Positions 40,548-48,614 of a stretch of DNA of 64,000 nt are shown in pieces. Both the position numbers and the translations under genes were made by a program. Where the stretch lies: sequence record OL770107. One strand, 5' to 3'. The notes under the pieces are model-generated. The model was not told the origin of the DNA, ran no database searches, and saw only the letters and a program-made list of their open reading frames with translations. The DNA is from Escherichia phage CLB_P2. Within the stretch, counting starts at the first letter, position 1, and the number at the start of each line of letters is the position of its first letter.

Positions 40548-40560
40548 GCCCTTTATTATT
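40531..40560. terminator. bidirectional terminator
   Basis: GGGCC-CGTA-GGCCC hairpin flanked by an A-run upstream and TTTATTATTTTT downstream; serves the plus small ORF and the minus Hoc-like gene. Confidence 0.6.
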
Positions 40561-41422
40561 TTTCAGGAGGGACGTAAACTAAGTCTTTCCTTTCTAAGAT
40601 GTAGCCATTTCTCGACTCTTGTATCTCTACTTCAGGATACTTAGACAAAAGGTCGGCTACTTTTTGTAACTCACATTTATACTTGTATGGGCTGTTGTTT
40701 ATATCCAAAGTCCAATCTTCTCCCAATCTAACGGCTTCTCTTATTTCGTCCCATACCCACCAACCTATCCACATATACGATTCATTTCTTCCACCGCCAT
40801 ATGGTAAATAAGCATTAAGGTCGTTATCATATATGAAAGGGCACTGCAATACATCATCCCTAGGTTTTATTTCAACTAAAAGTTCTTCAGAAGCAGGGAT
40901 ATATGCTCCTTCGCAGGTCGCTATAGATTTTAATGTATAATCTCCAAATTTATCAGGGTCGTCTATTAATATATCAATATCTTCGTCTTTAGATAATTCT
41001 ACTCCATCTCTATACCATCTACAAATTCTTTCGGCATAAGTGGGTTCCACTCTACACGACGGGCGAAGTGAAACTGTTTCTCCTATATTGGCATATATTA
41101 ATTCCCTAGAGTTTATATCTAGGACTATTCTTCTTGGAAGGGTACCTATTTCAAGTTCTATTTCGTTACTCTTTGTTATTTCACCACTTTTCTTATTTGT
41201 TATGGTCGCATAAAATGTTCCTGCCGCCGGGAATCCTACTTCCCATAAATTTAATTCAAAAGGGTCTTCGGTAGGAAGTTGTGGAATATGGACATCGTTT
41301 TTATACCAATTAATTTCTACATCATCTAGAGTAGAACCGGGTGGTAATACAAACCCGGTATAAAAGGTTACTGTCCTGCCAACCAATTCATATCTAGGAC
41401 CATTTATTTTAAGTACAATCAT
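40556..41422 (-). CDS. second Hoc-like protein: two Ig-like domains plus a Hoc-type capsid-binding C-terminus (288 aa)
   Basis: C-terminus (NESYMWIGWWVWDEIREAVRLGEDWTLD...KYPEVEIQESRNGYILE) parallels the Hoc C-terminal domain; N-terminal region has Ig-like W.Y and Y.C patterns; SD AGGAGG couples it to the upstream collagen-like gene. Confidence 0.75.
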   Translation of the reverse strand: MIVLKINGPRYELVGRTVTFYTGFVLPPGSTLDDVEINWYKNDVHIPQLPTEDPFELNLWEVGFPAAGTFYATITNKKSGEITKSNEIELEIGTLPRRIVLDINSRELIYANIGETVSLRPSCRVEPTYAERICRWYRDGVELSKDEDIDILIDDPDKFGDYTLKSIATCEGAYIPASEELLVEIKPRDDVLQCPFIYDNDLNAYLPYGGGRNESYMWIGWWVWDEIREAVRLGEDWTLDINNSPYKYKCELQKVADLLSKYPEVEIQESRNGYILERKDLVYVPPEK

Positions 41423-41431
41423 TTAACCTCC

Positions 41432-42937
41432 TTAAAACGTGCTCATATTGGTATGGTCTTCGACAGAAAATAAAACTTCAACAGGGATATCTGTAGTCGT
41501 ATTAAGAGGGCCGCCTACAATAAACACAGATACAGTGTAGTATTTTCTAGTATCACGGTCAAATATTTCGTAACGGTTAAATTGTCTTGCACTAGAATAA
41601 GCCAAATCGTCGAATAATTCAGGAGATGATGACCACAACACATTACTCCAGTTGGCACATTCTATTCCGTTTTCATAGTTGGTAAATCTTTTAATATCAA
41701 GCCTATTAGTAAGACCTGCATTAGTAGCCCTTATATGGATGCCTACAGATGAGTACATGCGAACATGAAGAACCATATTAAGGTCCCACAAACGTATTTC
41801 CTTCCACTCTGAAGTGTTCAGAGGCTTATCAAATCTTAAAGAGCCTTTCCAATATCTAGGTGGATAGAATGGGAAAAGTTTATCATATAAAGATTTTAAT
41901 TGAGACTGGGTTAAAGAATCGACATCAAATACTGCATCTTTGCCTGGCGCACCTGCAGGACCTATAGGACCTTGAATACCTTGAGGACCTTGATCGCCTT
42001 TTTCACCTTTAGGTCCTGGATTACCTTGTGGACCCTGCGGCCCTTGAGCACCGGGCGCGCCATCTTCTCCTGGATATCCAGGTCTTCCTTCTTGTACAAA
42101 CAAATGCCAATAATCAACCCATAGGTCTCCACGGCCTGGATAACTATCATTATTTGCTATATTGTCCTGAATACAAATCCAAGAAGACCCTTCGCACTGG
42201 ACTAAATCATTTACATAATAAGGTGTGCCAGGGTCCCAGTTTCCGGCCCAGATAAACCCATTACCATCTTGGCCTGGCGCGCCTTGTGGACCTTGAGGGC
42301 CGGTTGGGCCTGTTGGTCCTTGAGGACCTGGTGCACCGATATTAGCCAATAGCGCCCAAACTCCTTCGCTAGGAGGTATTGTTCCTGTATTAGAACTGAT
42401 GCAAAAATAAGAAGCTCCCTGGTATCCAACTGCATCGTCTTTAGAGTATTGGGTAGATTCATCCCAGGCTCCCTTCCACACCAAACCTGCCGGGCCTATA
42501 GGACCTTGTGGTCCTTGCGGTCCTACTTCTCCTTGGGCCCCTTGTAAACCCTGAGGGCCTTCTTTTCCTGGTGAACCCGGGTCTCCTTTAGGACCTTCTG
42601 GACCTGCTGGTCCTGGTTCGCCCTTTTCTCCTTTAGGACCCGGGTTACCTTGAATACCTTGCGGCCCTGGGTCTCCTTTAGGGCCTTGTGGACCTTCAGT
42701 ACCAGGTGTTAGCATCTCATTAGTTATACCTAAATGGGCCAACGCGCCTTCCCTAGAAGCTTGTTTTATAAATTCAAGTCCATAACTTTGAGAAGAATCC
42801 AACATAGTAGGGTCTAAGGTGCTTTCACTAGTGAGTATGTCTGCAAATTCCAATGATTTATCCTGCGGAACTTCTACTAATGATACGCCTCTAAAGTGAC
42901 CTCTACCGTCATGCCCGTATAATGGATTGTCTGACAT
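41432..42937 (-). CDS. collagen-like triple-helix repeat protein with two carbohydrate-binding-like (CBM5/12-type) modules (501 aa)
   Basis: Three Gly-X-Y runs of about 24, 8 and 17 triplets, separated by W.G.WD...Y...D.V...G.S(Y/W).CI modules; SD CAGGAG before the ATG; first gene of a two-gene minus-strand operon. Confidence 0.8.
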
Positions 42938-43333: not shown

Positions 43334-44341
43334 ATGTTCAAGAAATATAGCAGTCTGGAAAACCACTACAACAGTAAGTTTATCGAAAAACTCCGTACCA
43401 ATGGTTTGACTGGTGGTGAATGGGTAGCACGTGAGAAGATTCACGGAACCAACTTTAGTTTAATCATAGAACGTGACGCAGTCACATGCGCCAAGCGCAC
43501 TGGCCCAATTCTCCCTGCCGAAGATTTCTATGGCTATGAAATTGTACTTAAGAACTATGCTGATTCTATTAAATCTGTTCAACATCTAATCGAATCCATT
43601 AATTATCAGTCATATCAAATTTATGGCGAGTTCGCTGGTACAGGTATCCAGAAGAATGTGGATTATGGCGATAAAGACTTTTATGTATTTGATATCCGTG
43701 TTACTAAAGAAGATGGTACCGAATCCGTTTTAACTGATACCCTTATGGAAGCTTTCTGTATTATTCATAAGTTTAAGGTTGCTCCGTGCTTAGCCACAGG
43801 TAGCTTTGAAGACCTTATTAAACTGCCGAATGATTTTGATTCTGTTATCCCAGATTACAATTTTGCAGTGGATAACGCAGGTTTAACCATTGCTAACTCA
43901 ACCGATTTTATTCCTAAGGTCGAAGGTAAAGTATTTACGGCTGAAGGCTTTGTACTGAAACCTGATGTTCCTATCTGGCTGCCTAATGGAAATCGTGTAG
44001 CAATTAAATGCAAGAACTCTAAATTCAGCGAGAAGAAAAAGTCTGATAAGCCTATTAAGGCCGCAGTAATATTGTCCCAAGACGATATGGACTTGATGTG
44101 GCAATTCACCGATTATGTGACTGTTAACCGTATTAACAACGTTATCAGTAAGATTGGTGAAGTATCACCTAAAGATTTTGGAAAGGTAATGGGACTGACG
44201 GTCCAAGATATTTTGGAAGAGGCAGCCCGCGAAGAATTAGAATTAACCGATGCAGAAAACCCTGTTGAAGTTAAAAAGCAGCTTATCGAGTGCGTTAAAG
44301 ATACGCTACGAGCTGTGTGGATTGAATTAGTATCCAAATAA
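43334..44341 (+). CDS. rnlB: RNA ligase 2 (335 aa)
   Basis: Near-identical N-terminus to remembered T4 Rnl2 ([20 protein letters not shown]...[32 protein letters not shown]). Confidence 0.95.
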
Positions 44342-44376
44342 ACAATAAAGGGACCTTACGGTCCCTTTTATTTTTC
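44341..44376. terminator. bidirectional terminator (rnlB on plus, gene-24 paralog on minus)
   Basis: GGGACC-TTAC-GGTCCC hairpin flanked by AACAATAAA and TTTTATTTTTC. Confidence 0.65.
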
Positions 44377-45648
44377 TAGTGGTGGAAGTTTAACACCGAG
44401 ATAAGAACTCAACTGACTTTGATTAGCCATTTTGTCCATATCCGAACCATCAATAATGCGAGCTTCTTTATCGTCCTTAGCGACGGTATAAGGGTTTGCA
44501 GTCAATGCATAACGAGCAAGCAATGCTACTGTAGGTTGTAAGCTTTCCGGGTCAACAATAACCTTAAATTCACCTACTGAAGTATCACCTTCTTCATCAA
44601 CCACATCCAAACCTTCCGTATAAGGCGCATAATATAAAGATGCGACCGTCTGTCCTTCACCCATCTGAGCATTTACACCAACAATAACATAATCACATGG
44701 ACTATTCATATCGGCATAAAGAGGTAGACCATTCTTTAATACACCATAAGCCAATTCATCTTGGTCTTCCTTTTTCTCAACCCAACCGGAAGCGGCGAGA
44801 ATAGCAGCACAACGAGAACTAGCTACTGCATAAGTCCCAGCGAAAGAAGTTTGACGTTGGACGGCAGAGTTCATCTCACACATGTAATAATATAATGTAC
44901 GAGCACGGTCCTGGGCATTATCATAACGTGGGTTAGTAAGGTCCAATACGCCCTTTTCAGAAACACCTTGGACTTTAAAACGAGAACTCACCGTAATTAA
45001 TGACTGTAATACGTCCTTATTAATTTCTTCTGCCATTTGAATGCCTAGCAGATTTTCAATGAAATTAGGAGCATTAAATCCGTTTGATTCTAGGTCTTGG
45101 GCCAATTCGACTGTCAACGAAGTTTTCAGTTTACGTGATTTAACTTCAGATTGCCATTTGTCAATACGGAAGCCTGCTTCAGCAATTTCAGGATGGCCTT
45201 GTTCGAATTTAGAAGTAATAGCAGCATCTGATACCATACGAATATGTCCGGCCGCCACTGCTTCAGAAATAACTTCACCGAGGTCGGTTTCCGTGGTTCC
45301 GGCGAAAGGAGATGCTTCTAGAACTTTAAACACTACACTTTCAAACTGGAACATATCGCCGGCTGCATAAGCTGTAGACGAATCGGTAAATTCAGGAATA
45401 TTTTCACGTTCCGACATACCAATCTGACCTGCAAATGTGGCGCCACCAAGATAAGTCATTTTGTCGTCAGGATTAAGTACACGAACCCCGTACAGAGCGG
45501 CCACAGGTTGGCTTGTTTTTTGTTCAGCAACTAGGGCTTTAAAGATTCGTTTATTAGTTGCTTGGGTGTATGAAAGAAGAGCAGGACGGCCAACCGAGTT
45601 GGCAGCCGTCAATGTGGATTCTTTAATTAGGTCTATAATCTTAGACAT
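44368..45648 (-). CDS. gp24-like capsid vertex protein paralog (426 aa)
   Basis: Collinear similarity to the adjacent gp24 along the whole length (about half the residues shared at both termini, e.g. SLQPTVALLARYALTANPYTVAKDDKEARIIDG). Confidence 0.85.
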   Translation of the reverse strand: MSKIIDLIKESTLTAANSVGRPALLSYTQATNKRIFKALVAEQKTSQPVAALYGVRVLNPDDKMTYLGGATFAGQIGMSERENIPEFTDSSTAYAAGDMFQFESVVFKVLEASPFAGTTETDLGEVISEAVAAGHIRMVSDAAITSKFEQGHPEIAEAGFRIDKWQSEVKSRKLKTSLTVELAQDLESNGFNAPNFIENLLGIQMAEEINKDVLQSLITVSSRFKVQGVSEKGVLDLTNPRYDNAQDRARTLYYYMCEMNSAVQRQTSFAGTYAVASSRCAAILAASGWVEKKEDQDELAYGVLKNGLPLYADMNSPCDYVIVGVNAQMGEGQTVASLYYAPYTEGLDVVDEEGDTSVGEFKVIVDPESLQPTVALLARYALTANPYTVAKDDKEARIIDGSDMDKMANQSQLSSYLGVKLPPLEK

Positions 45649-46931
45649 TAATCAGCCTCGTAAATAATTGCTGGAAGTTTAACACCAAGCAGATAGGACA
45701 TATTACTCTGACCGGCCATTAAATCCATATTGGTTGCATCGATAACACGAGCTTCTTTATCGTCTTTAGCTACGGTGTACGGGTTAGCGGACAGTGCATA
45801 ACGAACCATCAGAGAAATAGAAGGCTGTAATGAATCCGGGTCGACAATAACCTTATAAGCACCAACGTGTTCTTGGTCGTCTAAATCCAGGCCTTCTGTA
45901 TATGGGGCGTAGAAAATAGAACCGACAACTTCATTACCACCATAGTTCTCTTTAACACCTACGATAACATAATCCAATGGGCTGTTAACGTCGCAGAACA
46001 GAGGTAATCCATTCAACAAATAACCATAGGCCGTTTCTGGGAGCCAATTATTATCTTCAGGTCTATGTTTTAACCAGCCAGAACCTGCAAGCATTGCAGC
46101 CACACGACTTGAAGCCACAACAAACGTACCTGAATAAGAAGTAGTTTTCTGGATTTCAGAATTCATCTCACAAACAATTTCATAAAGTTTACGTGCAGAT
46201 TCTGGAGCACTATCATAAGTCAAATCGATGATGCCATTATCAGATACACCCGTAACTTTATAGCGTTTGGATACGGTTATTAGAGATTGCAGAACATCTT
46301 TATTAATTTCATCTGCCATTACCGTAGCCAGGAGGTCTTCTAAGAATGCAGGGGCGTCGAAGCCATTTGATTCCATATCCTGTGCTAATTCTACGGTCAA
46401 AGCAGTCTTCAATTTACGGGTCTTAACAGGGGCATTCCATTTATTAACCTGGAATACAGCATCAGAGATTTCTACATCACTCTCTTCAAATTTAGTGGTA
46501 TGGGCTGCATCAGGAACCAAACGACACGTTAATGACACCAAACCTTCTTGAAGAGCATCGGCCAATTCTGTAGCGCTAGTGGATGCGAGTGGGCTTGCTT
46601 GAAGAGCCTTATAAACCACATTCTGATACTTAAAGTAGTCACCCTTGGCAATCGCCTGGGCTTTATCTGTGAGTTCCGGGATAGTTTCACGGTCTTTAGA
46701 ACCAACTTCACCACCATAAACTGCACCGGTTTGGAAACTGAATTCATTATCAGGGGTAAGATATTTGACACCATACAACGCAGCGATAGGTTGGTTTGTA
46801 CGTTGTTCAGCGATGATATCGCGATAAATTAGTTTAGTGGTAGCACGGGTCAAAGCAACAAGATTAGGGCGACCCAATGAGTTGCTGGTAGTAGTTGTTG
46901 ACTCGCGCAGTAATTCGTTAATCTTTGCCAT
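45648..46931 (-). CDS. 24: capsid vertex protein gp24 (427 aa)
   Basis: N-terminus MAKINELLRESTTT.SNS.GRPNLVALTRATTKLIY and C-terminal region match remembered T4 gp24; same length. Confidence 0.92.
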   Translation of the reverse strand: MAKINELLRESTTTTSNSLGRPNLVALTRATTKLIYRDIIAEQRTNQPIAALYGVKYLTPDNEFSFQTGAVYGGEVGSKDRETIPELTDKAQAIAKGDYFKYQNVVYKALQASPLASTSATELADALQEGLVSLTCRLVPDAAHTTKFEESDVEISDAVFQVNKWNAPVKTRKLKTALTVELAQDMESNGFDAPAFLEDLLATVMADEINKDVLQSLITVSKRYKVTGVSDNGIIDLTYDSAPESARKLYEIVCEMNSEIQKTTSYSGTFVVASSRVAAMLAGSGWLKHRPEDNNWLPETAYGYLLNGLPLFCDVNSPLDYVIVGVKENYGGNEVVGSIFYAPYTEGLDLDDQEHVGAYKVIVDPDSLQPSISLMVRYALSANPYTVAKDDKEARVIDATNMDLMAGQSNMSYLLGVKLPAIIYEAD

Positions 46932-46959
46932 TGCGCTTTCCTTATTGAGGGTATATGTT

Positions 46960-46967
46960 TATTTATA
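46960..46967 (-). promoter_or_regulatory. late promoter TATAAATA for gene 24
   Basis: Plus-strand TATTTATA about 30 nt upstream of the gene 24 ATG on the minus strand. Confidence 0.5.
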
Positions 46968-47007: not shown

Positions 47008-47038
47008 CAGAAACAAGAATGGGAGACCGAAGTCTCCC
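47008..47038 (-). terminator. terminator after gene 23
   Basis: GGGAGAC-CGAA-GTCTCCC hairpin followed on the minus strand by ATTCTTGTTTCT. Confidence 0.6.
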
Positions 47039-47054
47039 ATAATAAGGTTAGGTC

Positions 47055-48614
47055 TTAGATACCTTTAACATAAACGCGACGGAAGTAACCATTCAGACCG
47101 AGGCTGTTAACGATGTCCGGCATACCATTCTGAATACGTTTGGTAGGTGCCTGAGCAGCTGGGTCAGCGAACGGGTTAATACCGATACCGTAACGAGTTT
47201 TGAAGCCCATTACCGGCTGGAAGTTCTTCGGATCGGAACCGCGCAGTGGGGTCAGTGCAACGTAAGGGGCGTAGTAGATACCTGCGTCCATTTCGTTGGA
47301 ACCTTTATAACCGATGGTGAAGTAATCAGCACGGGCATACTGGTCGATGTAAACGCGATATTTACCACCAAGAACACCGGCAAATACTGCTTTAGTGGTG
47401 TCAACGTTGAAACCTTGACCCAGACCTTGAGCTGCATAACTTACAGAAGTATCAACTGCAGCCAGTACGTTAACTACGTTACGGGAAGCGATGATGAAGT
47501 TACCAGCACCACGACCGGTCTGACGAGCGATTTCGGCTGCTTCTTTATCAATCTGGAACAGAAGGGCTTTAAAGCTCTCACCGGCCCAACGAGCACCACG
47601 GATATCGATCGGGTCCTGGAAGTCAAACACACCAGCTTTAGCGCCAACGGTGTTGGTCATACCAGATTTACCAACCTGTGCAGAGTAGTTAATCCAATCA
47701 ATAACTTCACGGTTGATTTCGAGCATAATTTCGGTAGCAAGGATACCGGACAGTTCAGCATCTGCATCCATACCGTGTACTGCACGAAGGTCCTGTGCCA
47801 GTTCGATGGAGTAGCTTGCTTTCAGCTGACGGGATTTAGCTTCGATAACTTGTTTATCGATACGGAAGCCCATTTCGTTCCACGGGTTGTCCTGAGAACC
47901 GTTAAAGCCTTCCTGAAGTTCAGCGATAGAAGTAGCCATACCTTCAGCCAATTCAGCCAGCTGACCAGCTTCCAACAGAGCGGTTACGGCAACATCCAGT
48001 TTAGCAGCATCGGTAGCAGCAGCATCAACGGTTACGGCTTCAACAGCCTGGAAGTGTGCAGAACCGGTAGCTTCGAAGAAGTGAGAATAAATTTTACCAA
48101 CTTCCAGAACTTTACCTGCAGCCAGTGCTTCAAAAGTCTGAGCAGCACCCTGACCAGAGAACATAGCATTCGGAGCATACATCGGGTGGAAAGCTTCTTT
48201 AGCGCCAGCAGCGATAGGGTCTTTACCGTATACTGCGCGCAGTGCAAATACCTGGCCGGTAGGGTTATTCAGAGGCTGAACACCACAAATATCAAAAGCA
48301 ATCAGATGAGGAATAGCACGACGAACCATACCCATTACTGCCGGCCCAATCTGAGTTACAGCACCAGAGGTCTGGCCAGCTGCGATATTGGTAGCATCAT
48401 AACCGTGGTCACCACCGATTTCAGCTTCAGTCAGGAAAGAACCAAATGCTTCGGAGATTTTTTCGTCACGATATTCAGGAGCGGTCAGAATATCTTGTTC
48501 CTGGTTTTCAAAGATTTTAGCGATGATAGCTTGTTTAGAAGCACCAACGATTTCAGGAAGAGCTTCGTTTTCCAGCAGAGCGGACCATTTTTGTACTAAT
48601 GCATTCTTTTTCAT
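47055..48614 (-). CDS. 23: major capsid protein gp23 (519 aa)
   Basis: Extensive match to remembered T4 gp23 (AIIAKIFENQE, GGDHGY.ATNIAAGQTSGAVTQIGPAVMGMVRRAIP.LIAFDICGVQP, FRRVYVKGI). Confidence 0.97.
   Translation of the reverse strand: MKKNALVQKWSALLENEALPEIVGASKQAIIAKIFENQEQDILTAPEYRDEKISEAFGSFLTEAEIGGDHGYDATNIAAGQTSGAVTQIGPAVMGMVRRAIPHLIAFDICGVQPLNNPTGQVFALRAVYGKDPIAAGAKEAFHPMYAPNAMFSGQGAAQTFEALAAGKVLEVGKIYSHFFEATGSAHFQAVEAVTVDAAATDAAKLDVAVTALLEAGQLAELAEGMATSIAELQEGFNGSQDNPWNEMGFRIDKQVIEAKSRQLKASYSIELAQDLRAVHGMDADAELSGILATEIMLEINREVIDWINYSAQVGKSGMTNTVGAKAGVFDFQDPIDIRGARWAGESFKALLFQIDKEAAEIARQTGRGAGNFIIASRNVVNVLAAVDTSVSYAAQGLGQGFNVDTTKAVFAGVLGGKYRVYIDQYARADYFTIGYKGSNEMDAGIYYAPYVALTPLRGSDPKNFQPVMGFKTRYGIGINPFADPAAQAPTKRIQNGMPDIVNSLGLNGYFRRVYVKGI

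Follow-up and report, generated by a model that had tools for sequence, protein, structure and literature searches.

Within the window analysed here, a stretch of 64,000 nucleotides from Escherichia phage CLB_P2 (sequence record OL770107), two genes for proteins of the capsid vertex type lie in tandem on the minus strand, with the head cluster 20-67-68-21-22-23 upstream of them. The first, gene 24a (45648..46931), encodes a T4-type capsid vertex protein of 427 amino acids with the prohead-protease motif LRE↓S at residues 8-11; the second, gene 24b (44368..45648), encodes a divergent paralog of 426 amino acids with the motif IKE↓S at the same residues; and gene 23, for the major capsid protein, occupies 47055..48614 on the same strand. 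The lengths and coordinates of the two adjacent reading frames are exactly those given in a preliminary description of the locus, which had also held that their products resemble each other along their whole length, that the upstream one matches T4 gp24 closely, and that the downstream one shares about half of its residues. BLASTP bears out the mutual similarity, which is far above chance (502 bits, E = 0.0, with 56% identity and 77% positives over 428 columns, or 56.4% identity in the common alignment); "closely" amounts to 70.4% identity between 24a and T4 gp24 in the common alignment, and "about half" is accurate for 24b, at 56% to 24a and 57.1% to T4 gp24.

The assignment of both genes as paralogs of gene 24 is likewise sound, resting on full-length homology to T4 gp24. 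Both proteins match T4 gp24 end to end in PDB entry 1YUE (666 bits for 24a and 510 bits for 24b) and in the in-situ structures 7VS5, 5VF3 and 8GMO, whereas their similarity to gp23 is weak (26-28% over some 290 residues, the scores for gp23 chains being near 45 bits), so that homology places each copy far nearer to gp24 than to gp23. Pfam family PF07068 (Gp23 family, HK97 fold) is matched by 24a and 24b at 331 and 327 bits respectively. Gene position agrees with membership of the gp24 type: the order 20-67-68-21-22-23-24a-24b is supported by the reading frames and by the annotation of phage JS98, and the pair lies on the late strand behind a late promoter. The single gene 24 followed by rnlB that had been attributed to T4 is seen in the T4-species phage RB55, where rnlB is convergent. 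Over 5.4 kb, the sequence of the region matches OZ035781.1, an unannotated record of Dhakavirus CLBP2, at 100% identity, and JS10, dhabil, Bp7, IME08 and JS98 at 89-97%.

The signals around the two genes are arranged as expected of a single transcription unit. After the gene 23 stop codon (47055-47057) comes a terminator-like hairpin, ATGGGAGACTTCGGTCTCCCAT, with a T-run (47019..47040, minus), followed by a T4-type late promoter consensus, TATAAATA (46960..46967, minus), 28 nt 5' of the 24a ATG, and by the Shine-Dalgarno-like motif AAGGAAAG of 24a (46936..46943, minus). At the other end a bidirectional terminator-like hairpin (44347..44368) is common to 24b and the convergent rnlB (43334-44341, plus strand). 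The stop codon of 24a and the start codon of 24b overlap in the sequence TAATG (45646-45650, minus), and a GAGG Shine-Dalgarno for 24b (45656..45659, minus) lies within the 3' end of 24a, 7 nt 5' of the 24b ATG. Motif and hairpin scans revealed neither a late-promoter motif nor a minus-strand terminator between 24a and 24b. In the seven loci examined for the promoter, TATAAATA is also present 5' of 24a in JS98, VR26, IME523 and two further loci (L009 and L012), with the variant CATAAATA in another (L011); the junction between 24a and 24b is abutting or overlapping in nine loci out of nine, from at least four genera, usually with a purine-rich motif resembling a Shine-Dalgarno sequence. The codon bias of 24a is similar to that of 24b, both being nearer to the portal gene than to gene 23. 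The single upstream promoter, the flanking hairpins, the TAATG overlap with its GAGG, and the lack of any signal in between argue that 24a and 24b form one bicistronic late operon in which translation is predicted to be coupled; 24b, having no promoter of its own, would be co-transcribed with 24a.

The tandem is not new, contrary to what the preliminary description implied. GenBank records for JS98, JS10 and IME08 label the pair 24a/24b, those for VR5 and VR26 label it "capsid vertex protein I/II", and dozens more list "capsid vertex protein (x2)". The abstract of the 2004 paper on JS98 is said to mention a "gene 24 duplication". The tandem is thus already known as annotation and is widespread in relatives, and CLB_P2 adds a member and not a phenomenon. 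It had been held that the proposal would fail if the second copy proved common in close relatives with a documented role. The first part of this is the case, since orthologs of 24b with at least 80% identity were found by tblastn in at least 91 phage records; as to the second, no documented role was found. The open literature yielded no function, virion proteomics, cryo-EM, structure or genetics for the second vertex protein of any two-copy phage, and a review of the genomes of T4 relatives does not mention a second copy of gene 24. In a search of about 5.8 billion proteins, 24b-type proteins grade from 91% to 67% identity.

The order 23-24a-24b, with abutting or overlapping reading frames, recurs in JS98 (Dhakavirus), VR26 (Gaprivervirus), IME523 (Kanagawavirus) and Cronus (Roskildevirus), and the order is found also in an FBB1-like contig and seven more uncultured contigs, so the tandem is not restricted to Dhakavirus. 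In all 13 loci examined, that of CLB_P2 with its overlapping start codon among them, 24b lies directly 3' of a 24a-type gene, and neither these loci nor the top database matches include a 24b without 24a. Examples with one copy only come from Jiaodavirus, Tequatrovirus, Tulanevirus and Pseudotevenvirus. The presence of 24b varies even inside a named genus: in Kanagawavirus, IME523 has both genes and PEi20 has one gp24-type match.

The age of the split was assessed by neighbour joining with bootstrapping on 39 sequences. The tree unites all 24b proteins in a single clade (100% support) that sits on a long stem (0.186), and CLB_P2 24b belongs to this clade both by its position in the tree and by the diagnostic residues described below. 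Another clade, likewise supported at 100%, contains every 24a partner together with the single-copy gp24s of T4, AV111, Merlin, CC31, Serratia 4S, PM2, PEi20 and EcS1. The 24b clade branches outside that of 24a and T4, though these are distance methods and long-branch effects on the exact attachment point of 24b are possible. Support for the split is 99-100% under p, Kimura and two gamma distances, and 75-82% on the slowest two-thirds of sites. A recent duplication specific to Dhakavirus is rejected, because the outgroups are nearly equidistant from the two copies (Acinetobacter phage ZZ1 has 57.7% identity to 24a and 57.0% to 24b; RB43 has 44.8% and 44.0%) and because not one of the 100 bootstraps run under any of six settings, namely four distance models and two with slow sites only, makes 24b sister to the Dhaka-type 24a. 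Gene conversion or homogenisation was also rejected: the genes share 60% of their nucleotides, with no identical run longer than 17 nt, and identity between the a and b copies is 52-57.5% in all 12 phages compared. Capture from an identifiable single-copy donor is not supported, since the nearest single-copy gp24 (from Jiaodavirus, at 62-63%) is equally close to 24a and to T4. The position of 24b outside 24a and T4, the equidistant outgroups and the lack of conversion argue for an ancient split, and the paralogs appear to have separated no later than the radiation to which T4 belongs.

Their patchy distribution then needs either repeated loss, in the T4 lineage among others, or lateral spread of the cassette. 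Mosaicism does occur, for in two contigs the 24a partner belongs to a CC31-like or PM2-like subclade. The trees of the two genes are also discordant, that of 24a joining CLBP2 with JS98, with VR26 outside, and that of 24b joining JS98 with VR26, with CLBP2 outside (bootstraps 99.5 and 95.5 respectively), which points to recombination inside the cassette between Dhakavirus and Gaprivervirus.

Purifying selection acts on 24a and 24b as strongly as on gp23, with omega of about 0.05: for CLBP2 against JS98, dN/dS by the Nei-Gojobori method is 0.052 for 24a, 0.056 for 24b and 0.060 for gp23, and for deeper pairs it is 0.02-0.2, with dS saturated. On these values and the intact reading frames, a pseudogene or decaying copy is rejected. 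Between the same two phages, dS of gene 23 is 0.155, far below the values of 0.74 for 24a and 1.09 for 24b; this could reflect strong codon bias in gene 23 (ENC 33.5) or its recent replacement through recombination. In the 12 phages that carry both genes, conservation is slightly higher for 24b than for 24a, with mean pairwise identity of 75.9% against 70.7% and 226 invariant columns against 208. The history of 24b, as read from the tree and the alignment, would thus appear to be a burst of change on the stem and then stasis. The (L/I)-x-E↓S protease motif is present in all 12 aligned 24b sequences, with a variable x position, and in 24a too; T4 gp24 is cleaved by gp21 after residue 10 (PMC9546572).

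Sites were counted as diagnostic of 24b where one residue is at least 90% conserved in 24b and a different one is at least 90% conserved in 105 other gp24s. There are 13 such sites (in T4 numbering A26S, T32N, L34R, Y36F, K56R, Y57V, T68G, T204I, I261V, Y267F, K328N, E335Q and L415Y), and the diagnostic residues are visible in the CLB_P2 24b protein. Seven of them lie within residues 26-68, a clustering with binomial P of about 1e-4 in a window picked post hoc. In T4, residues 26-29 of gp24* pair as a parallel beta strand with an I-domain linker that belongs to the neighbouring gp24* subunit of the same pentamer, linker 1 spanning approximately residues 60-81, while residues 11-20 reach the neighbouring hexamer (PMC9546572). 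Set against this description, the cluster suggests that the changes specific to 24b concentrate on both partners of an intra-pentamer subunit contact, both sides of a self-contact having apparently changed together. The two paralogs have 110 near-invariant alignment positions in common, and each of them varies most in the exposed I-domain region. Of the neofunctionalisation raised in the preliminary description, functional divergence at least fits the long stem, the strong purifying selection and the residues fixed at the intra-pentamer contact; the alternative pentamer composition also raised there is a hypothesis.

Comparison with known systems places the pair in context. With T4 gp24 (PDB 1YUE; in situ 7VS5 and 5VF3) the two proteins share length and end-to-end alignment (70% for 24a, 57% for 24b), a gene position after gene 23, late-promoter control and the N-terminal L/I-x-E cleavage motif. 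They differ in that T4 has one copy where CLB_P2 has two, and 24b carries, besides its 13 clade-specific substitutions, several small indels: an acidic insertion of 3-4 amino acids in the loop at 348-359, an insertion near residue 240 and, in most members of the 24b group, a deletion near residues 293-297. The 24a-24b pair of JS98, JS10 and IME08 and vertex proteins I and II of VR5 and VR26 are direct orthologs in the same order. The JS98 proteins are 94.8% (24a) and 91.3% (24b) identical to those of CLB_P2, with minor differences that include a change of one amino acid at each C-terminus. The relationship between gp23 and gp24 offers a broader parallel, 24a and 24b representing another round of the process in which an HK97-fold shell protein is duplicated and then specialises (PMC10580926); here gp23 and gp24 have 26-28% identity and a known division of labour between hexamer and pentamer, as against 56% identity between 24a and 24b.

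The space on either side of the pair differs between relatives. In JS98 (L001, 6734-7000) and VR26 (L004, 5199-5480) a small opposite-strand reading frame of about 90 amino acids lies between 23 and 24a, and is absent from CLBP2. The homing endonuclease gene segD occupies the same place in T4, between genes 23 and 24, and so this intergenic space appears to be a recurrent insertion site. Downstream, between rnlB and hoc, CLB_P2 has a 501-amino acid collagen-triple-helix protein with two CBM5/12 carbohydrate-binding modules (41432-42937, minus), annotated in relatives as "tail fiber-like". Its gene lies directly 5' of, and almost abuts, that for a second Hoc-like head decoration protein of 288 amino acids (40556-41422, minus; PHROG 1149 "Hoc-like head decoration", E = 6e-43), which has an ESRNG motif in its C-terminal capsid-binding domain; a second Hoc paralog is also described for the T4-like phages Muldoon and PG7 (PMC10385173). 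In Roskildevirus and FBB1-like phages the homologs of this collagen-like/Hoc-like pair lie directly 3' of 24b on the same strand, giving a late operon 23-24a-24b-collagen-like-Hoc-like; homologs are located at 2676-4506 in L008, 5326-6841 in L011, 4890-6427 in L012, 2634-4140 in L015 and 5501-7016 in L016 (Cronus). The idea that 24b serves as a head-fibre docking site for the collagen-like/Hoc-like pair is weakened by JS98, which has 24b without the pair that is found near the CLB_P2 genes, and any link between them is weakened also by Aeromonas phage AS4 (L018), which has the pair and a single gp24.

The products of both genes are almost certainly functional shell proteins that become part of the prohead, to judge by the operon structure, the strong selection on each copy, the protease motif and an HK97 core that is intact. 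It is proposed that 24a and 24b would be made from one bicistronic late transcript by coupled translation; that both proteins would enter the prohead, where the gp21 protease would trim them after Glu10; that 24b, an ancient paralog, would be an obligate companion of 24a and not a replacement for it; and that, of the 11 vertices of the prolate head other than the portal vertex, some would be occupied by 24b homopentamers and the others by 24a. The chances that this reading is right in full, with two functional, gp21-trimmed vertex proteins from a coupled bicistronic late transcript and 24b homopentamers at some vertices and 24a at the rest, are about even; incorporation into the virion, formation of homopentamers and the division of vertices between 24a and 24b are the parts that we infer. 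The vertices of a prolate head fall into non-equivalent classes, and a five-fold pentamer admits no fixed symmetric ratio of a to b. Since both sides of the intra-pentamer contact appear to have changed in concert, and since a mixed pentamer cannot be symmetric, separate homopentamers are the most parsimonious arrangement. Counting against it, all 55 gp24* subunits of T4 are conformationally alike (PMC9546572), so that a need for vertex-specific proteins is not demonstrated.

The coupling of translation would also fit hetero-oligomers, and such tight coupling, with invariable co-occurrence, is typical of the subunits of a single complex. If 24a and 24b co-assembled, both would be present in every vertex, and the positions kept near-invariant across the paralogs could leave most of the interface compatible; but five-fold symmetry would deny such heteropentamers a fixed symmetric stoichiometry, and the diagnostic changes, falling on both contact partners (the N-terminal strand and the I-domain linker), favour self-recognition, which makes mixed pentamers unlikely. 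Homopentamers might further be position-specific, one paralog being confined to a distinct symmetry class, for example the single apical vertex at the end away from the portal, or one of the two rings of five vertices, and the other used elsewhere, an arrangement that we regard as possible, if on the doubtful side.

Two further explanations fare less well. The proteins might be alternative and partly redundant, either being able to build vertices and the pair giving robustness against temperature, gut conditions or a host factor that targets one form. Several two-copy phages, those of the VR series, reportedly low-temperature phages, would suit such a role, as would the variability of the exposed I-domain region in both copies; moreover, T4 gp24 can be bypassed by mutations in gp23, and capsids that lack gp24 are less stable under stress (PMC10580926, PMC3012670). 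Redundancy would lead one to expect phages with 24b only, however, and the lack of any such phage among the loci and top database matches favours a role dependent on 24a over simple redundancy; nor is an omega of about 0.05 often kept in both copies by simple redundancy over such divergence, and this explanation is accordingly judged quite improbable. Finally, 24b might have no place in the mature virion, being instead a factor for assembly, a protein of scaffold-like or decoy function, or a decaying copy. No proteomic evidence of its incorporation was found in the open literature, but strong purifying selection, a full-length reading frame in every lineage, and retention of the protease motif and of the whole HK97 core all speak against decay, and the protease site implies a location inside the prohead; we consider it very improbable.

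T4 serves as the reference model of prolate capsid assembly; its vertices are taken to require a single specialised protein, and one that can even be bypassed. If the vertices proved to be position-specific, these would be the first tailed-phage capsids known with two dedicated pentamer proteins, and the single gene 24 of T4 would be a secondarily simplified state. The sequence finding itself has been present in GenBank annotation since the JS98 genome. A sizeable group of T4 relatives, from several genera and with some phage-therapy candidates among them, retains the second vertex protein under strong selection, and its retention suggests a requirement in head assembly or stability that has gone unrecognised.
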